From an uncultured delta proteobacterium (GTDB lineage Bacteria > Desulfobacterota > Syntrophobacteria > BM002), in the NCBI GenBank assembly GCA_963712115.1, contig CAVQGX010000033.1, positions 64,001 through 128,000 of the forward strand: a DNA stretch of 64,000 nucleotides, in the 5' to 3' direction. Both the position numbers and the translations under genes were made by a program. Below, in pieces: positions 23,928 to 33,898 of the stretch. The notes under the pieces were generated by a model, which saw only the letters and a program-made list of their open reading frames with translations, made no database searches and was not told where the DNA came from. How positions within the stretch are numbered: the first letter of the stretch is position 1; each line of letters starts with the position of its first letter.

Positions 23928-24910
23928 TCATGCAATCCTCAAAGAGCAATTATGTCTTCTACGTAACCACATAGTGTTTTTCTTAATCTGCTCACGCCTA
24001 GTCAGTATCTCCCGCTCTCTGCGATAGTAAACATCAGCCGGTGTTACATTGTTCAGCGCTTCATGGTATCGATAGTTGTTGTAGTAGTCGACAAACCTCC
24101 CGATTTGATTTTCGAGTTCCAAGGGGCTGTGGTAATGCTCAAGCAACAACAGGTTTTTCATCGAACGGTGGTATCGCTCAATCTTCCCCTGTGTCATCGG
24201 GTGATACGGCTTGCCACGAATATGGTGGATCCCTTCTGCTTCGAGATATTCTCTTAGAGCTTTGGAAACATAGCAGGGGCCGTTATCCGAAAGCAGCCGG
24301 GGGCGATGCCATACGGTTGGATTCCTAGTACCGGTGAAACCGATGGCCGCCTCAATCGTTTGTTTCACCTCCTCGGCGGACATACCGGTACATAATTGCC
24401 AGGCAAGAATATATCGTGAATAATCATCCAGAATGTTGCACAGATAGTACCAGCCCCAGTGCACTACTTTGAACCAGGTAAAGTCCGTCTGCCACAGTTC
24501 ATTTGGCTCTTTGCTCGGATGCGGGAACTTATCCTGTGCCGTTATAACTGTATAGACTGGGCTGGTTACCAGATCATGGGCTTTTAGGATCCGGTATACC
24601 GATGACTCCGAGATATAAAAACCTTGTTTGTCGGTGATGTACCAAGCCAGCTCACGCGGTGACTTCTCAGGGTGCTCAAGAGCGATCTCAACCACACGCA
24701 GTCGCTCCCACGGCGGTATCTGGTTCCAGAACTGCTTCGGAGGTCGGTAGCGGTTCGCCAGTGCCTGGTAACCTCCCTCCTGGTACCTGCGATACCATTT
24801 GTAAAACGTGCTCCGGTTGATGTTGAACTCGACAAGGTGTGCTTTACACTGAGCGGTGATTGCTCTACCACCCGGATGATTTCCATCTTTTCTGATTGGC
24901 TGTAGGGCAT
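23928..24910 (-). pseudogene. transposase orfB (rve integrase core), frameshifted near the N-terminus
   Basis: WQTDFT, LSDNG, QGKIERYH DDE motifs; N-terminus MPYSQSEKMEII lies in another frame. Confidence 0.85.
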
Positions 24911-24924
24911 GTAGCGCCTCCACT

Positions 24925-25261
24925 TCAATCCAGACCACTCAGACTTTTTTTCAGCACCCGGTTGCGCAAACTCAATTCGGCTACAAGCTGTTGAGCTGCT
25001 CGTTCTCTGCGAAGCTCAGCCACCTCGCGGCGTGCTGCTCTCGGGAGTATCGCCCTGCAAACGTGCCTGCGTTCCTCCAGAAACGCTTTGCTCCCACATA
25101 GTCTGGGCAATACCTCCTCTGCGGCAGAGTGGCAAGCTCTCTTCACCCTTTAGGCCTTCCAGAATGATTCTGATTTTTTCTTCTGAGTTGAATTTTCGGC
25201 GGGTTTTTCGCTTGATCTCACGAACAACAGATTCAGGGCTCTGGTTGGTTTTAGGTTTCAT
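24925..25261 (-). pseudogene. transposase orfA (HTH), frameshifted
   Basis: RRKFNSEEKIRIILEGLKGEES in one frame, SKAFLE...LVAELSLRNRVLKKSL in another. Confidence 0.8.
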
Positions 25262-25350
25262 TTCTTACTCCTCTCACAGCAGATGTTATTACCTAAAACC
25301 GTCTCTTATTTCATCCCCTGAATCTGTCCACTTTCCTCTGAAACGCTGCA

Positions 25351-25571
25351 GACAACGAAAATCCGTGTATCAAATTGGACCAACCCGGATTCATCTGGAC
25401 AAGGTTGAAGGCCTTGGTGAGTTTCTGGAACTCGAGGTGGTGCTCAAACCTGACCAGACTTTGTCACAGGGCAAGGAGAGTGCACGTCAAATCATGGAGA
25501 CACTGGACTTGGAACCCGAGCATTTAGTCAGCGAGGCGTATATCGATTTGCTGGAGCACAGAACGAAATAG
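25351..25571 (+). pseudogene. C-terminal fragment of a class IV adenylate cyclase/CYTH protein
   Basis: YQIGPTRIHLDKVEGLGEFLELEVVL...AYIDLL; begins at the IS end. Confidence 0.8.
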
Positions 25572-25601: not shown

Positions 25602-26543
25602 TTAGAAATAGATGGGAAAAATAAGGGCCGTAACCCGCTGGTCTTGGGAGTTGCTGCCATTCGTTGCTGCGCTGGCCTGAGCCTCTACCCGAAAGGAAGG
25701 GGCACTGCTGAGTCCCCACTTTTCTATACCCGAGACAACACCCTGCGAAAGGGATACCTGGTTCACGCAGGAGTGATCTGGGACTGATTTGAATTTTGGA
25801 ATGAAGCAGGGGAAATCACTGGAGGGTACGGTATACTCGACCCGCATCCTCTTTAGCGCTGTAGATTTGCCTCCCGCTTGACTTCTTTCTTCCCTTGGCT
25901 TGTTCATCCTGCGGAAAAATACTGCACAGCTAATCTCCAGTTCAGTAGCAATCATTCTTCTCACCACCGCCTCGGGAGATGCCTCATATTTTTCCGCGAG
26001 GGGATAAACGCTCTTCACGGAATAGCCATGGTAGACTACATCTCGGGCAAACCAATCCATGGGCATTAGCATTTCCGAAGCAGCAAGGTTGCACAACGAT
26101 TCCAACTCCAAGTGGTAATGTTCTGCCCTGCCCGTTTGCTTCCTCATTCTGACAATCTCAAAACAGTCTGGAAATAACGTGTGGGCTATTTCGTGGCAGA
26201 TAGTGAAATGCTGCCTGGTCTTCGGCAGTCCTTGATTAACTATGATTTCCAGCTGACCTTCGCCGTTGGCGCGAAGCACGCCGTCAGTACCAGGACTGAG
26301 GTTTTTCTCCTTTACACGGATTCCGAGGATAGAAGCCAGAATCTTCGGGTCATATGGCGGGCCTGACCAGCCTAATCTCCTTGCATAGTCAATTAGATCA
26401 TTCGCCCGTTTACGAATGATTTGCCTTGGGCACAGGACTGCACCACATTTCTCCAGAAGAGCCAGTACAGATGGATGCCGCCACTGTTCTGTTCTTAGAT
26501 GAGCTGGTATTAGACCGTTTCGTTCCTTGAAAGCCTTATCCAA
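25602..26543 (-). CDS. ImmA/IrrE family zinc metallopeptidase, CapP/IrrE-like (peptidase + HTH + probable GAF)
   Basis: RQHFTICHEIAH, ExLCNLAASEMLMP, LAEKYEASPEAVVRR, extra ~100-aa C-terminal domain. Confidence 0.85.
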   Translation of the reverse strand: MDKAFKERNGLIPAHLRTEQWRHPSVLALLEKCGAVLCPRQIIRKRANDLIDYARRLGWSGPPYDPKILASILGIRVKEKNLSPGTDGVLRANGEGQLEIIVNQGLPKTRQHFTICHEIAHTLFPDCFEIVRMRKQTGRAEHYHLELESLCNLAASEMLMPMDWFARDVVYHGYSVKSVYPLAEKYEASPEAVVRRMIATELEISCAVFFRRMNKPREERSQAGGKSTALKRMRVEYTVPSSDFPCFIPKFKSVPDHSCVNQVSLSQGVVSGIEKWGLSSAPSFRVEAQASAATNGSNSQDQRVTALIFPIYF

Positions 26544-26601
26544 TTTCTCGTCGTGCTTGTCCTGAGCTTGTCGAAGGGCTGCCCGCTGTCAGCTGCCGGC
26601 T

Positions 26602-27014
26602 TCAGCTGCCAGCTGTTTCCCTCTTCTTTATTCTCTGGTCGGCCACGTAAGCGTAGTAGCGCTTTCCTGGTTTCTCTCCCCGGAATCTTATTCTGGCAAG
26701 ATCGAGGAGAATATCTTCGGGAATGGGTTTTCCCTGCTTGTGTCGTTCTTTCGCGAGCTCCAGCAAATCCTGGTCGATGTCGGCCGGTAGTAGTCCTTTT
26801 TCAGGACAATGGGCTTGGTCTCGCCCATGAGTTGGGAGCTGGTGGTGCCCAACACCTCAGCGAAACGGTAGATGGTCTCAGCCGAAGTGGCAATTTCTCG
26901 TTTGATAATCTTGGTTAGGTTGCCCTCGGTTACACCGCTCTTTTGGCCAGCTCGCCAGGGTCCAGCCCTTGATGACGAGGAGGTTCTTGATCCTCCACCG
27001 AGCTCTTCCGCAAT
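26602..27014 (-). pseudogene. frameshifted XRE-family HTH repressor, CapH/DdrO-like
   Basis: manual translation across indels: ELGxRIKNLLVIKGWTLxELAKKSGVTEGNLTKIIKREIATSAETIYRFAEVLGTTSSQLMGE...IPEDILLDLARIRFRGEKP. Confidence 0.78.
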
Positions 27015-27179
27015 CTATGATCTGGCAGAATCACCGTGAAGGTTGAGTACCACAGTTTATTTCTTTTTTACAAGTCATTTTTAAAAAATTCCATATATGC
27101 AATTTTATCTTGACATTTCATTTACCCTAATGACCATCTCGGTCGACCAGAATAAATCGTCCAAAAGGACTCATTCACC

Positions 27180-27203
27180 GGGAGGGGATAAACCCCTCCC
27201 TAC
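27180..27203. repeat. GTAG-type REP hairpin
   Basis: reverse strand GTAGGGAGGGGTTTATCCCCTCCC. Confidence 0.55.
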
Positions 27204-27240
27204 GTTTTGATTTCAGGCACTTATCTTTGGGTGAAACACG

Positions 27241-28804
27241 ATGGCACTGGAGGTATTCCAGACTTTTTACACCTCTTTGCATGATCATTTCAATGCTTTT
27301 ATCAAAGGGATTTATATCAGTCTGCCAGATGGGGTGAGTAGCCAGAGGGTTAAGACGGATCTTTGCTTCCACTTCGGAGAGATTTTCCGGGAGATCATAA
27401 CCTACGATCCCTATAACGGACTCACCAGGATTCAAGCTGGAAACGTTGACTCGAGCGGCAGAAAAAAGACATCTGCGAGTGCAGAACGGATCGATTTCCT
27501 CACTCTGTTAGGGCGGCTTGGAAATCAGATTACAGGTTCTAAACACAGATTACTTGTGTTGTTAGATGGTGTGGACAACTACCTCAACGAAGATGTTGTA
27601 AGTTTGAGACTGGCAGAGATATTGAGTCGGAGGAGTTTCGGGTACACACTCACATTTATGGGCTTCAAGGACTTCCCTCGCTACGATCCCCTACCTAGGC
27701 TTAATCTCCACGAAATCCCTTACCCAAGTCCATGCAAGGCCAGTCTCTGCAAAATGGTGCGCTCCGGCCTTGAGGCCATCTCTATAGAGGGACAGAAATC
27801 AATTGATCTGGACAGGTTGGAGGCGGACCGCGGCCAGTCTTTTTGGTTGCCCTTCACTGGCGGTTGCCGAAGATATCTTTAATCTGGCTTACTCGGAAGA
27901 AATAGGTTTCGATCCCTCCTCTGTCGGAAAGCTGAAGCTAGGCAAGATTGTGTCGAAGATTCCGGGAATTACTATTCGATCTCCCATTGACTTGCCGTCT
28001 ATGGACCAGGTTGCCGGCTATTCCCATCTGAAGTCCTACTGTGAGATGCGAAAAGAAGTGTTCTTTAAGGAAAACGGTAAAATCAGATTACATGGCATAT
28101 GTCTCATGGGTCCTCCCGGCACAGGAAAGACACTTTTTGCCCAAGCCCTTGCTCACCAATGGCAGATACCTTACTGCAATCTTCACATGACTTTCCTCAG
28201 CAGATTTCTTGGCTCCAGCGAAAGAAATCTCGAGCGAATCCTGCGGATGCTCATAGATTTTGGCGGACCTGTGCTCTTTCACCTGGATGAATTGTCCAGA
28301 CTCTTCGGAACAGTTCAAGCTGACTCCCATGAAGTGACAAGGCGAATCGTGGCCATGTTACTTAACTTCTTGGAATCACCTGATTCAACCCACGTTTACA
28401 CGATTGGAACTATGAACACCCTCGAGTTAGACGCAGCACTGCTAAGACGTTTCGATGACGTCTTTTATGTAAGTTTGCCGGACAAATCCCACCGCAAGGA
28501 ACTCTTCGAGTGTTTTGCCAGGAAGTACGCGGTCAAGCTTCCCAATGATATTTCTGTCTACAGTGTTTCGCGGGGCATGGTGGGCAGTGAGATTGAACGC
28601 ACAGTTAAGGACCTGAAGATTGAATCAATGAGCAAGGGGACTCAGCCCTCATCCCTTGATCTGATGCGAATCCTTAGAAACAGACCGGCATTGGCTACAC
28701 TCTTTTCCAGCCTGCATGAGATAGAAGAGATGGCTTTACAGGCAGGTTTTCGTCGCGCCTCCCAGGCCGTTACAGCCTTCCATACTGATCCAGAACAGTA
28801 TTGA
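27241..28804 (+). pseudogene. Ycf46-like AAA+ ATPase split by one frameshift near 27825
   Basis: GPPGTGKT, LFHLDE, TMN, ALLRRFD; degenerate N-terminal NTPase-like half (LLVLLDGVDNYL); span is 1564 nt, so removing one base gives 520 aa. Confidence 0.75.
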
Positions 28805-29598
28805 TTACAAAATTGGCCGATTTTCAACAACTGTCTCATAGAGAGCGAAAAGACTCCTTACACGAGTATCAGGGTGGTCTGCCACCAATTAGCACTGGAA
28901 AAAGCTGCTACGTAATGGCCTGGCAGTGAAAGAAAGTTCTTCAGAGCATATTCCCCTGTAACCAAAGAAGAGATCCTAGGAGATCTATGTGAAGCTGTCA
29001 GAGGATTGAAGAGGGCAGGGCACTTCACGGAATTAACCGACTCTTGGACAATATTTACTGTCTAGAAAGCTGCGAAGAATCAGAAGGGGAGACTGCCACA
29101 TTTTCAGAATAGCTTACGTCAAAATCCACACAAAGGGGTAAGAGCGGTGCTGGCTGCAGTAATCATGGTTCTGCCGGAGAGCAGCACGTATAGATGTGGG
29201 CTGCTTGGTCCGTGTTTCTTTGTCTATGAGCACGGAGCTTGGTTTTGTGAGGGATTGAAGCTCTAACTTGCTGGCGAGAACCGCCGCGGCAATCACGTTC
29301 ACCTTTTTAGGATCATAGATAACACGATTTGCAGAGACTCTTTGAAAAGGACGATTTCGACAAAGGTGTTCCTCAGAGCCAATCAGCAAGAAGAGGGCAC
29401 CACGAACTCTTCATTGCAGAGATCTGACACAGAGCTGCGAATGATAAGGAGCGCCAGGGTTTCCCGTGCGTAGAATCTTGTCGAGCGCCAAAGAGTTTAG
29501 TTTGGACAGAGGCAAATGCAGACGAAGAGCCAAGAACTCAGTCTTTCGAAGATTTGCTGCGACGAGAAACATCAAGACACAAACTGAAGGAGGATGTC

Positions 29599-29732
29599 AT
29601 GTCGACAAAAAGGACCATCAGGACACGTCTTTATGCGGAGGATTTACCGCTGATCTGGAGACATTGGAAAAGAAAGGCTACGATTATTGGTGCAACTCAA
29701 GAATAGGGGGCTTCCAGCGCAATTTGACCTAG
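29599..29732 (+). pseudogene. small frameshifted ORF, possibly DUF1257/Ycf35-like N-terminus
   Basis: AAGGAGG RBS, MSTKRTIRTRLYAEDLPLI / LETLEKKGY. Confidence 0.35.
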
Positions 29733-29848
29733 TGGTCAAGGTAAATGGGAAGATTCTGGGATTATCGAAAACTGGGCAGGGAGATGAGTCGTATTAAAAA
29801 AAAAAAAAAAACGCGCAGCAACGGAATACAGGATTTAGAACGAGCGGC

Positions 29849-30650
29849 AAAGCAGGTACAGGATTTAGGTGAGCCATGATCAAAATCTAAATTGAGCTCC
29901 AGACCCAAATGGGGCTGCAACCGCCTCCAGGCCAGCTTACCAAGTTCCTGCGTGATTCGCTGATACTCCCAACCGCCCGGACTCCCAAGATTCCACTCAG
30001 AGTGATAGCCCAAATGATATTTGAATGAAAAGTATGATTAAATATGAGAATTGATTGAAGAATTTAGTTTGATGGATATAATAAAGTTATGAATGGTAAT
30101 TGAGCGAATAATGAGATAAAAAAAAGTGTAAAATAAAATTAAAAATTTGAATGAATGTGATATAGAAGTTTGAAAATAAAATGGGGAAGATGTATTAAAA
30201 GAAAGAATGTGATAAAATAAAAAAAAATTAAAGAAGGAAGAAAAAGAACTCTTCCACAGATACCTCCCTATTTAGTGACATGCGTGTTAGCTTATCAGGT
30301 TAATACCATTCGAATAAAAAAAAAAAATAAAAAGGAAAAAATAAAAAAAAAAAAAAAAAAAAAAAAAAAATGAAAAAATAAAAAAATAAAAATAAAAAAA
30401 CTAGAGAAATAAATAAAAAAATAAATAAAAAGAATAAAATGAAAATTAAAAAAAATAAAAATGAAAAAATAAAAATTAATAAATAATTTCGACCCTGCAC
30501 CGAATACCAGTCCGCCTCGGCTAAAGCAGGTACAGGATTTAGGTAGCCATGATCAAAATCTAAATTGATCTCAGACCCAAATGGGGCTGCAACCGCCTCC
30601 AGGCCAGCTTCCAATTCCGCGTGATTCGCCGAACTACCATCCGCCCGGAC
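29849..30650. repeat. ~130-bp direct duplication (29849-29982 and 30523-30650) around an A-rich low-complexity tract
   Basis: copies differ mostly by single-base indels; long poly-A runs at 30315-30480. Confidence 0.8.
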
Positions 30651-31964
30651 CTCGCGATGGCGGGTGGGTCGAAACAAGCTCTTTGTATTATATCAATCAA
30701 AGAACTACCGTCATATTTGAATACAAATATATCAGACAACACACTTGCAAGAGTAAATGCAGTTAGAAAAAAAACAAAATAATTTATTTTACTTTGTATT
30801 TTGTTCGATTTTTGCTGTGCCTTTTGCTCTAACTGTGTGTAATAATAATTGAAACGCGTACTTAATGTTTCAAATTTACTATTAAGACTATTCACAGTTG
30901 TCTGCGTATCCCATGTATTATAGATTCCATCGCAGACCTTCTTCTCGTCATCCACGCCGGCAAAATTCTGTGGTAATATCTCATAAGTAATTACATTGAT
31001 AGATAATTCAATGCGACGTATGGCTTCCAGCACCGTACGTATACCGTCGGGATCAAACGTTTGTTCCTCCTTGCTCAGAGAAAGAGCCCAGTCATAAAGG
31101 TATTTCTCAAGATCCCGGGCCATCGTGTAGTGATCTGTAATAAACTGCCAGAGATTCATAAGCCAAGTTTCTTGGTCGTCATTGGATACAATTGCGATGT
31201 GTCCATCATAACCTTCAGCGAGGTAAATTATGCCATTACTAAAATCATTATATTTCCTTGCCGACGAACCCGCAAAGCCTACTAGCCCTTTCTCGAGATT
31301 TCCTGGCTCGAACTTCAGATCACTTTCTTCATCGAATGAAAGTAGAGCACCTGTTCCGACAACTCTAGTTGGATTTCGTCCTTTAGCCCCGCGGAACAAG
31401 AAACCACAGAAATATATAATGATCACTTCTAAATTCAGCTTTCCTAATTCGAACATTCATTTATCAATGCGGAGTTTAGTCCACCTCCACCTGAACTACC
31501 ATTTTCCGTTAGATTTTCAAATCTCCAAGCAGCAAGCCAAGACGTTCAATCCCTCCTTCTTCTTCAAGTTCGCCTTTTATAAGGAAATTGATGCTCCCTA
31601 CACCATGGTCAAAATAAACAACGTTTTCTCTTATGTTTTCGGAGTCAAGCTTGAATCCAACGCACTCAGATTTCACTTTCTCATGAGTGATGACCTCTCG
31701 CATTATTCCTGTTGGTCCCACTAGCGTTCCAAGCAAATATCCATGTTTGGCTTGAAGAGACAAGGGGAATTGTTTGTCGAATTCCTCCGCTGACCACCGG
31801 TACCCTGTAAACTTCTCGCTATTGTTGAGTACTTTAGCGATATAATTCAATTTACGAAGTTGGTGAATCTGGTTGTCAGAATATTCGATTGAGCACCCTA
31901 AAGAGAAATGGAATGTTAAGAAAAACTTGAATTTTGTTGAAAGGCTAATATGCTCGATACTCAT
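30560..31964 (-). pseudogene. AT-rich gene split into two ORFs; C-terminal coiled coil and TM segment, weakly CorA-like
   Basis: AAGGAG RBS at 31964; YFDHGVGSI; SNKIQSKINYFVFFLTAFTLASVLSDIF. Confidence 0.45.
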
Positions 31965-32054: not shown

Positions 32055-33677
32055 TCATCTTTTGGAAACGACGATAAGCAAATTGGCGGTATCTCGCCAC
32101 CCTCTAGCAGTAGAAGGTGAAAGTGCTTCCACCCAACTGGCAAGGAAACGTTCCCGCAAATCTAAGATCTCATATTTACCCAGGCTGTAACACAGCTGGT
32201 AACCAGGGTTCAACCGAAATCGCTCTATTTGCATAACGGCCTCGTCTGCTACAAAACCTACGGAAACAAGCAGAGCGGCAGCCTCCTCCGCAGTGAACCT
32301 TCGCAAGGCTAAACCAGAGTCTATTAAGCAACGAGCTGCTCTCCACAGTCTCCGCTTGCAATCCACCAGGAGCTCCAACTCGTCCTCCACGTAGCCAGAT
32401 TCGGCAAGTATGGATTCAGCATAATAGGCCCACCCTTCGTAGAAAAGTGGCGACTCAACTTGTCTTCGTACCGGGTTGTCCAGATTGCGACGAATAGTGT
32501 CCAATAAATGATGCCCTGGGTAGGTTTCGTGAGCAGAAAGAAAGCGAAACTCCCGGTGTAACCGTTGCCTTCGGAGAAGATCGATTTGTGAATTGCTTGA
32601 TGGTCAGCCGACGGTAACATAGAAACAGGCCAACTCACGAGAGTCAACGGTCAAGGGTGCGCTGTAAGAGGCCCCACTTCTAACCGGGCGCAAATAAGTT
32701 GCTGTCTCGGCTAGGACCAACTCCTGATCCTCGGGGCCGCTCAAAAGCTCAAGGTTGACGCAGAGTTTCCGCAATCTTGCTATTTCGTTACCGTAGAGTC
32801 CAAAAAGGTCAAACTCTCCTTCGTTGCTAGGTAGGTAGCTCTCATAGACCTGCTGCCAATCTTGGTTGGGATTTATCCTCCGGCGAAGCCGTTCTATTTC
32901 TTCCAGGCTAGTCCGCCATTCTTGCTCGGCAATACGGTAGATTTCCTCTAAAGACCTGGTGCAACCAAAATGGCGCTGCACGAGCTCTTCTACCGAAACA
33001 GACTGAACCGTGGCTGCGGGTGTCGAACCGAGTTCGCGCAGGTTTGCTCCAAAGGCAGTAAGTGCCTCCTGGGCCTCTGCGCATGGCAGGGCCAGTTGCT
33101 CCCGCCAGCTATGGCCATCTAACTCAAGAAGAATTTCATCGAGATACTTTTGAGCATGCTGCACCACAGCCAGGGCAACCCTATAGTAAGGACCCGGGAT
33201 GGAGCTCAGACTTTTACTCCCCTGATCAATCAGTCTTTTAAAACCAGAGAGCCGTTCAGCGGTGCGACCGAACCGTTCCTCTGCGTCTTGGAATGGCTTG
33301 TTAAGGGCATGATCGACACCGATACAACCAACTTTGAGGTAAAGGAGAGGATTATGGCGCCAGGACTTGACCTCCTCCAGTTCGATTAGCAACCCCGCCA
33401 TATTATGGAGGAGAAGCTGACGATCAATTTCCTCCTCGAGATCTTGTGCCCTTGGTTGTTTTTGCAGCTGTGCCTGCAAAGCCCGCACTGAGTAGACTAC
33501 CGAAGCAATCGCTTCCTGGCTCAAATCGTCCATAAGTTCCAGAAACCCTGCCGCCTCCTGGACCCGGGGTAAAAAGTGGAACTCATCACTGGCGCACATT
33601 ACCGGAAAGGCCCTGGCGAGCAAAGAGAAGTATTCACTGGCAATTTTGCTGACTTGGCTTACTGGCTGATCTAACAT
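32055..33677 (-). pseudogene. DUF885 family protein interrupted by an in-frame TGA (32604) and a 3' frameshift
   Basis: HETYPGHH lies in frame between the two ORFs; YEGWAYYAE, PGYQLCYSLG; FHLLLLEGGEIP in a shifted frame. Confidence 0.85.
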
Positions 33678-33704
33678 CGCTCTCAGTCTTCCGCTGCCAC
33701 CATG

Positions 33705-33898
33705 AAATTCTAAATCCCAATACCTGCCCGCCATGCGAGCAAGGCGAGGCGGGCGGGTCTAAATCCTAAACAAATCCAAATTATCCAAATCCAAATGCCC
33801 AAAACTCAGGATGAGTAAATTTGCACAATTCCGTTTGGGACATTGGAGCATTAATGTTTTGAATTTGTTTCGGATTTTGTGCTTCGGATTTGGGATTT
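33705..33898. repeat. imperfect palindromic intergenic element, third copy, with nested GC-rich hairpin
   Basis: AAATCC arms ... GGATTTGGGATTT; CCTGCCCGCC...GGCGGGCGGG insert. Confidence 0.65.

Follow-up and report, generated by a model that had tools for sequence, protein, structure and literature searches.

The 64,000-nt stretch of DNA analysed here (hereafter, the window) covers positions 64,001 to 128,000 of contig CAVQGX010000033.1 in assembly GCA_963712115.1, which derives from an uncultured delta proteobacterium (Desulfobacterota; Syntrophobacteria; BM002). The source genome, labelled G000, is metagenome-assembled, 4.9 Mb in size, spread over 70 contigs and 94% complete with 6% contamination. 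Between positions 25602 and 29794, the window holds the remains of a gene cassette in which a repressor and an M78-type peptidase on one strand face an operon headed by a Ycf46-like AAA+ ATPase on the other. A preliminary description of this DNA had laid out the region as peptidase, helix-turn-helix (HTH) gene, spacer, ATPase gene, broken DNA and small open reading frame (ORF). All of these parts are in place, but the states then assigned to the genes were wrong: the copy in the window is a relic in which the peptidase gene alone is still whole.

The peptidase ORF (25602-26543, minus strand) is intact and encodes a 313-aa protein that its family matches identify as a putative M78 zinc peptidase of the IrrE/PprI/CapP kind (Pfam PF06114, Peptidase_M78, E 2.4e-13; PADLOC capP, the best PADLOC model, E 1.2e-23). 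An HEIAH motif (H117, E118, H121) and a downstream glutamate, E148, are invariant in all six peptidase sequences and kept in the window. By sequence, the only solved relatives of the peptidase in the PDB are IrrE/PprI proteins. By fold, the five best PDB matches of an AlphaFold2 (AF2) model were PprI (8sln/8slm), IrrE (3dti/3dte) and CapP (7t5t), with E values of 8e-7 to 2.5e-6. The model is usable at residues 20-200 (predicted local distance difference test, pLDDT, of 55-90) and comprises a peptidase plus helical linker fold as in IrrE, PprI and CapP.

Upstream of the peptidase and on the same strand, as previously proposed, lies the coding DNA of an XRE-type HTH repressor (26605-27037, minus strand); the gene itself, however, is broken. 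Three-frame translations and tblastn alignments with stops distribute its coding pieces over three frames, the start ATG now reads ACG, and, relative to the versions in G012 (a genome of the window's genus) and L095 (a metagenome contig), five 1-nt deletions were found, at 26789, ~26944, ~26957, ~26996 and ~27008. Intact repressors of relatives measure 146-166 aa (HTH_3, E 1.1e-12), and that of the related genome G018 matches DdrO (6jq1/6rnx) over residues 25-138, i.e. over both the HTH and the C-terminal domain. A tryptophan within the HTH (IKGWTQ) is kept in four of five family members, and an F-R-G motif is conserved in the C-terminal part; by analogy with known repressors of this type, F|RG is probably the site at which the protein would be cleaved.

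The spacer between the repressor and the ATPase gene is AT-rich and contains TTGACA at 27110-27115, both as described before, but this box lies just 7 nt from a -10-like TACCCT. An alignment of six intergenic regions, from the window and five relatives, brought out a conserved core: the palindrome TTTCATATATGAAA, followed 7-8 bp on by TTGAC(T/A) and, after another 17-18 nt, by a TA...T hexamer. The palindrome keeps its 7-8 bp distance from the -35 box in all six loci. In the window, it is degraded to a 14-bp remnant (TTCCATATATGCAA, 27089-27102), while the five relatives carry TTTCATATATGAAA itself or differ from it by one or two changes; in L095, the palindrome arms span 16 nt and are 94% complementary. 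The window's promoter for the ATPase operon (27110-27128, plus strand; -35 TTGACA at 27110-27115, -10-like TACCCT at 27123-27128) appears disabled, as the gap between its boxes measures 7 nt against 17-18 nt in the five relatives, with 11 bp gone between two conserved elements. When genomes were searched for the palindrome at up to one mismatch, G012 and G020 (another related genome) each yielded one site, that of the cassette locus; G018 yielded the cassette locus and one other 1-mismatch site, and G000 none. This confinement to the cassette locus argues for a local switch rather than a regulon. From its position and conservation, we infer that the palindrome is a putative repressor operator.

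Within the 5′ untranslated region of the ATPase gene, a hairpin of the form GGGAGGGG-ATAAA-CCCCTCCC is followed by a T-rich run (27180-27200, plus strand), together making up a terminator-like site. Four loci retain its GC-rich stem of eight pairs, one pair having changed in a compensatory manner, and the counterpart in L095 lies at 1450-1470. This leader hairpin may be an attenuator; an Rfam search of L095 matched no family to it.

The two-domain, Ycf46-like AAA+ ATPase (27241-28804, plus strand) had been described as one protein of ~520 aa with intact catalytic motifs. The motifs are indeed present, but the gene is split into two ORFs, 27241-27882 (213 aa) and 27803-28804 (333 aa), by a 2-nt deletion after 27832; intact relatives encode 517-544 aa. 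The second piece keeps Walker A (GPPGTGKT), Walker B (HLDE), the sensor-1 asparagine and the RR arginine finger (PF00004, E 6.6e-22). Aligned with seven DUF1257-linked ATPases, the family matched with 100% probability (hhalign, E 1e-39), residues 50-515 mapping onto 41-496. A programmed frameshift was considered and rejected: the ATPase is a single ORF in four relatives, and in G012 the gene is broken at a different site, between residues 260 and 261 (locus L014, G012:C146, 572-2142, minus strand), alongside a repressor and a peptidase that are whole.

The ~800 bp of broken and possibly coding DNA noted downstream of the ATPase are confirmed to be the remains of a gene, here called X (28801-29725, plus strand). 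Its best frame contains seven stops, the reading frame changes several times, and islands of tblastn similarity alternate with out-of-frame stretches, with many small deletions throughout. In relatives, X is an orphan of ~331 aa that belongs to a family of 12 proteins, none with a Pfam domain, and that has six representatives among 1.84 billion proteins. An AF2 model predicts a confident helical-repeat domain (residues 1-220) and a disordered tail, and comparison with the PDB gave no match at E <= 0.001. The small ORF led by a ribosome-binding site, reported further downstream, does start at 29599, but is merely the 5′ stump of a second gene, Y (29599-29794, plus strand), of whose 127 codons tblastn recovers ~67, in three frames, before the similarity is cut off near 29795. 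We read Y as a divergent DUF1257 member: its full-length hhalign comparison with canonical DUF1257 gave 90.8% (E 1.2e-6), and DUF1257 clusters made up 29 of its 30 ESM Atlas neighbours. Pfam scans of X, Y and the N-terminal half of the ATPase at E 10 gave nothing useful and no hit at all for Y, and PHROGs held nothing for X or Y. In both loci in which the two genes are whole, the 3′ end of X overlaps the start of Y by ~130 nt in another frame (L095 3946-4076; L012 10934-11064), and the overlapping tail is open in all nine full-length X proteins.

Intact homologous loci that combine HTH gene, peptidase, Ycf46-like ATPase and downstream genes were found in two related genomes, G018 (locus L012) and G020 (locus L013), and on two metagenome contigs, L095 and L096, all of them with whole ORFs. 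They reveal a unit of seven genes, in which the peptidase and the HTH repressor point one way and the Ycf46-like AAA+ ATPase, X, the DUF1257-like Y, a DUF2997-like gene (Z) and a gene for an NrdG-like radical SAM enzyme point the other. Seven loci contain the ATPase N-domain, and within the limits of their contigs they all agree in gene order and orientation; the HTH and M78 genes adjoin the ATPase in 7/7, which bears out the earlier claim that this ATPase sits next to capH/capP-like genes. The shared order, taken with the conserved intergenic core, argues that the arrangement is beyond chance. Z (66-67 aa) and the radical SAM gene (193-199 aa) follow directly after Y in both loci that reach that far. 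Against the DUF2997 model (PF11211; cut-off 24.1 bits), Z reaches 23.4 bits (E 5.6e-5), just short of the threshold, and 18.1 bits (E 0.0025), and when it is aligned with eight canonical DUF2997 members, G13, G21, C27 and G37 are invariant. The radical SAM enzyme matches Fer4_12 (E 1.7e-19) and, more weakly, NrdG models (E 2e-15, 57 bits against a cut-off of 126). Neither gene has a match in the window better than E 0.008. Upstream of the DUF2997-like and radical SAM genes in G018, a 21-nt repeat occurs in three copies (L012 11472-11513 and 11828-11848).

The cassette is rare. Among 40 relatives, close ATPase matches occurred in three further genomes (G012, G018 and G020), and a profile of the N-domain detected the ATPase subfamily on three metagenome contigs and in four (G000 among them) out of 122 genomes from the class, all four belonging to one family; in two of these four genomes, the cassette is broken. 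A profile of the full ATPase alignment, dominated by Walker A, returned generic AAA loci only. Among 5.8 billion proteins, full-length relatives of the ATPase formed eight clusters, and the next match (E 2e-38) covered 38% of its length. The genes flanking the cassette vary from locus to locus. These observations fit a rare accessory unit, that is, a patchy and dispensable set of genes.

The cargo of the switch has much wider relations. The preliminary description had proposed the whole as an undescribed system; the pairing of switch and ATPase operon stands, but the cargo belongs, as a divergent member, to a widespread AAA-DUF1257-DUF2997(-radical SAM) module, here as part of a seven-gene unit, and the window's copy of it is dead. 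DUF1257 (PF06868) is found in 34 of 401 sampled genomes of the phylum. A related ATPase lies within 1.5 kb of it in 27 of 30 loci and adjoins it in 19 of the 20 loci with longer flanks; of 20 sampled canonical DUF1257 loci, 19 also contain DUF2997 and two a Fer4_12 radical SAM gene. On plasmid alpha of Nostoc sp. PCC 7120 (NC_003276.1, 37622-40199), genes for DUF1257, DUF2997, a hypothetical protein and an AAA ATPase are annotated in a row, and in cyanobacteria a cluster of duf2997, ycf35 (DUF1257) and the ferredoxin gene fed7 is described in passages of PMC4284462. Some canonical clusters have further members: in L135 (985-5774), a Fer4_12 radical SAM gene lies directly 5′ of the ATPase and a gene for an 872-aa WD40 protein after it, and in L144 (2561-8622), genes for 678-aa HEAT, 505-aa Hsp70-like and 67-aa proteins precede the ATPase. 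X showed no affinity to the HEAT proteins of canonical clusters (hhalign, 0.1%). A Clostridium butyricum plasmid locus with a WYL regulator by an AAA ATPase was set aside as no parallel, as it is without a DUF1257 or DUF2997 gene. Our full-text literature search returned no functional account of DUF1257 or DUF2997.

A second and independent pairing of such a switch with this core was found in another class of the same phylum. In locus L151, an HTH gene (HTH_31, E 1.8e-11), an M78 gene (E 9.2e-11), a 62-aa gene, the ATPase, DUF1257 and DUF2997 (E 1.3e-14) follow one another on one strand; a 303-aa protein of this locus is, by profile comparison, no relative of X (hhalign, 1.4%). Relatives of the L151 peptidase occur in 25 of 151 genomes of its class, and 5 of the 15 loci fetched, L151 included, show the series HTH, peptidase, 62-aa gene and ATPase. 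In the remaining ten, the peptidase gene adjoins unrelated genes, which makes these loci uninformative on function. In locus L150, an HTH-M78 fusion lies next to the core. Together, the L151-type loci and the L150 fusion indicate that the switch has been joined to the core more than once.

One characterised switch that comes close in layout is the CapH/CapP pair, for which we draw on two preprints (Lau et al. 2022; Calloji et al. 2026). According to passages of the former (10.1101/2022.04.27.489752), the repressor-peptidase pair is as a rule divergent from, and upstream of, a cargo operon, and the cargoes named are cyclic-oligonucleotide-based antiphage signalling systems (CBASS), defence island systems associated with restriction-modification (DISARM), DUF2188/DUF3892 and two ubiquitin-like operon types; a DUF1257-linked ATPase is not among the cargoes in its main-text passages. 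Passages of these sources further state that W35 of CapH contacts CapP and that CapH is cut between F82 and R83. The cassette resembles this arrangement in its XRE-HTH and M78 HExxH pair, placed on the opposite strand upstream of the cargo, and in the retained HTH tryptophan and C-terminal F-R. It differs in that its peptidase is ~21% identical to CapP over the aligned part and in the longer basic tail of its repressor; with respect to the ssDNA-binding GAF domain of CapP/PprI and the cysteine-switch loop of CapP, the likeness of the cassette peptidase covers the peptidase and linker part. Among proteins of solved structure, DdrO/IrrE (PprI) of Deinococcus come closest, in sequence to both switch proteins and in fold to the peptidase. 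In that system, single-stranded DNA (ssDNA) activates PprI/IrrE, and DdrO is cut in its C-terminal domain, as described in passages of PMC10904395. DdrO, however, runs a regulon via many radiation/desiccation response motif (RDRM) sites, whereas the operator described here is confined to one locus and the cassette is an accessory unit. The ATPase, for its part, shares its two-domain build with the ycf46/ycf35-type AAA-DUF1257-DUF2997(-radical SAM) clusters, along with DUF1257-like, DUF2997-like and NrdG-like partners; the cassette departs from the canonical core in its order (ATPase, X, DUF1257, DUF2997, radical SAM), in the inserted orphan X and in the added repressor/peptidase switch.

Catalogued defence systems were compared as well. 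None of X, Y, Z and the radical SAM enzyme matched a PADLOC family, and the ATPase drew only generic hits through its AAA part (IetA and TRIP13 models), in agreement with the earlier expectation that the locus would match no catalogued system. IetAS is reportedly a defence system of Gao et al. 2020. The AAA domain of the cassette ATPase matches the PADLOC model of IetA at E 4.4e-22 and the NCBIfam model IteA at E 6.5e-21 (75 bits against a cut-off of 510), but these matches go no further than the generic AAA module. The N-domain is Ycf46-type, and among X, Y, Z and the radical SAM enzyme there is no S8 protease of the IetS type. CBASS type III was rejected, since the TRIP13 model (E 1e-11) covers the AAA part only and the other operon proteins match no PADLOC model. 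So was a class III ribonucleotide reductase, given that the NrdG models stay below their cut-offs and no large glycyl-radical gene adjoins in L012 or L095. No paper pairing a CapH/CapP-type switch with AAA-DUF1257-DUF2997 was found in the literature, and the CapH/CapP-type switch facing a Ycf46-like ATPase operon thus stands as a candidate for a pairing not yet described.

On balance, we favour with some confidence the reading that the window carries a dead copy of a rare seven-gene accessory cassette, in which a repressor/peptidase switch facing an ATPase operon would work as proposed below. Judged by their sequences, the repressor, promoter, ATPase, X and Y are inactivated, and Z and the radical SAM gene are lost, in the window's genome. 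In an intact copy, a repressor dimer would sit on the 14-bp palindrome by the -35 box and hold the operon off. By analogy with CapH and DdrO, ssDNA arising from DNA damage or phage replication would activate the peptidase, whose cut would fall within the C-terminal domain of the repressor, probably at the conserved F|RG step that recalls F82-R83 of CapH. The operon would then be expressed, and its products might act as one machine comprising an unfoldase, dedicated small partners and a radical-generating enzyme. A complex prediction pairing X(1-225) with the ATPase N-domain, Y and Z scored 0.00, which is uninformative either way. Our guess is that the target of such a machine would most likely be the cell itself or an invader, which it would harm or remodel in a defence-like or mobile-element function. 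Up to the step of derepression, this mechanism appears well grounded by homology. Damage-induced expression of the ATPase operon is proposed by analogy with the known switches, and a defence role for the cassette would follow from homology and analogy only. The broader notion that the core itself is an inducible conflict system, provided with an ssDNA-sensing switch in at least two lineages, such that damage or phage would turn on an unfoldase and a radical enzyme that disable the cell or the invader, is one we put forward tentatively and regard as possible rather than probable.

Several observations weigh against this account. A strict consensus sigma-70 scan detected no promoter in the window or in L095, and the promoter call is for that reason drawn from conservation. 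Residues 205-313 of the peptidase, although conserved, were modelled at a pLDDT of ~30 from a six-row alignment and lie outside every fold match; the L095 repressor matches generic XRE proteins only, that of G018 alone matching DdrO. An M78 gene lies nearby in only two of the 20 sampled canonical DUF1257 loci, so that the switch would be an add-on of some lineages. The operon contains no effector-like nuclease, pore-forming protein or NADase, the genes that flank the cassette in L013, L014 and L096 are of the ordinary housekeeping kind, and mobile elements yielded no relative, be it among 64 candidate stretches of IMG/VR contigs or, at 80% coverage of the ATPase, among 116 phage and 1805 plasmid records. 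As to the decay of the window's copy, the two pieces of the ATPase, compared with G012, show ratios of nonsynonymous to synonymous substitution rates (dN/dS) of 0.10 and 0.16, and the peptidase one of 0.15, which means that any inactivation of the ATPase is recent. The metagenome contig X6 is identical to the window over 27281-27613 only, leaving the frameshift sites outside same-strain coverage, and the single ATPase lesion may be an assembly error.

That all of the breaks are assembly or sequencing errors and the window's copy is functional is nevertheless highly improbable. The idea draws on the metagenomic origin of the genome, with its 70 contigs and 6% contamination, on the purifying selection seen in ATPase and peptidase, on the lack of same-strain read coverage at the frameshift sites and on the nature of most differences, which are 1-nt deletions. 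In favour of real decay, contigs of relatives from three sediment and marsh metagenome runs, none of which contained more than 14% of the sampled words of the stretch, carry the undeleted base at 26789, 26940, 27828, 28934, 29100, 29110, 29655 and 29752-29754. The lesions are, moreover, concentrated: relative to the relatives' genes, the peptidase (942 bp) has none, the ATPase (1.56 kb) one, the HTH gene (430 bp) five and X many, including its seven stops, while long ORFs elsewhere are open. Random read errors would not be expected to produce so uneven a pattern, and errors do not take the form of an 11-bp deletion in a promoter, nor would they remove half of Y and two entire genes (Z and the radical SAM gene).

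Two other explanations read the purpose of the cassette differently. It could be an immunity or regulation region of the ImmR/ImmA type, belonging to an integrative element or a prophage remnant, with the ATPase operon as element cargo for replication, packaging or counter-defence. The logic of repressor and peptidase is the same: in ICEBs1 and phage phi105, the repressor is cut by its partner M78 peptidase on DNA damage (passages of 10.1101/2022.04.27.489752). The distribution of the cassette is patchy, its copy in the window adjoins an IS3-type element, that in G018 has a tRNA-Leu gene ~2.1 kb away, after which comes an integrase-like C-terminal fragment, and ESM Atlas clusters of DUF1257 are 50-100% viral, albeit with few records each. 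ImmR/ImmA, however, control excision and lytic genes of a mobile element, and no such genes occur in the cassette loci examined: neither the cassette nor the DNA beside it in L013, L014, L095 and L096 contains a gene for an integrase, an excisionase, replication or structural proteins, no att-like direct repeat of the tRNA-Leu end was found in G018, and the IMG/VR, phage and plasmid collections, at the scopes given above, hold no relative. The switch, moreover, faces the same operon and nothing else in all seven loci. We therefore consider this explanation unlikely, and the absence of integrase, excisionase and replication genes inside the cassette speaks against an ordinary prophage immunity region, a match to which would have refuted the earlier proposal.

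Alternatively, the cassette could be a chromosomal stress module akin to Deinococcus DdrO/IrrE, its AAA+ unfoldase set repairing or clearing damaged proteins or iron-sulphur enzymes without any conflict with phages. IrrE/PprI and DdrO being the best solved relatives speaks for such a role, as do the clustering of cyanobacterial DUF2997 and ycf35 with a ferredoxin gene (passages of PMC4284462), the Hsp70-like and HEAT proteins in canonical clusters and the housekeeping flanks of three loci. Yet the operator is confined to the cassette locus apart from a single further 1-mismatch site in G018, G012 and G020 having no other, as befits a local switch and not a regulon, and presence in 4 of 122 genomes, two of the four copies being broken, marks a dispensable accessory set. 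A module of this kind thus appears unlikely to us, and we retain the accessory cassette with a local, putatively damage-responsive switch as our preferred reading.

The surroundings of the cassette in the window are themselves disturbed. ORF density is ordinary over the rest of the window, at 0.75-0.89 in 9 of 16 bins of 4 kb and 0.66-0.74 in five others, and the two lowest bins (0.43 and 0.54) flank the peptidase-ATPase stretch on either side. The interval between 20 and 34 kb has the appearance of a zone of decay, with an IS3-type transposase, a CYTH fragment, a poly(A)-rich insert and a split gene. The transposase ORFs lie in two frames (23928-25261, minus strand), and abutting them is a C-terminal fragment of a CYTH-domain gene (~25344-25571, plus strand; PF01928 profile positions 113-179 of 179), of which the last third is left, apparently truncated by the IS3-type element. 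On the other side of the cassette, right after the Y cut-off, begins a poly(A)-rich stretch of 30% GC (30100-30500) bracketed by a ~90-bp direct repeat (29849-29938 and 30523-30610) whose copies are 96-100% identical. Two ORFs beyond it (30560-31456 and 31509-31964, both minus strand) matched no Pfam or PADLOC family, and at 32055-33734 (minus strand) one gene is split into ORFs of 376 and 149 aa, with a third frame overlapping, and is probably a pseudogene.

The value of the finding rests on the intact relatives, the relic in the window serving to point to the family. In these relatives, a switch of a known kind is paired with a cargo new to it, and they offer handles that can be tested: the 14-bp operator, the candidate site of cleavage and whole cassettes of ~5.5 kb. 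If the core does act as a conflict system, the repeated inactivation of the ATPase, at different sites in two of four genomes, would reflect its cost. The operons so far known to carry CapH/CapP-type switches act in phage defence or stress responses; the joining of such a switch to the AAA-DUF1257-DUF2997-radical SAM core would provide a first regulatory clue, a hint of when the operon turns on, for genes found widely across bacteria, phages, cyanobacteria and, as ycf46 and ycf35, plastids.

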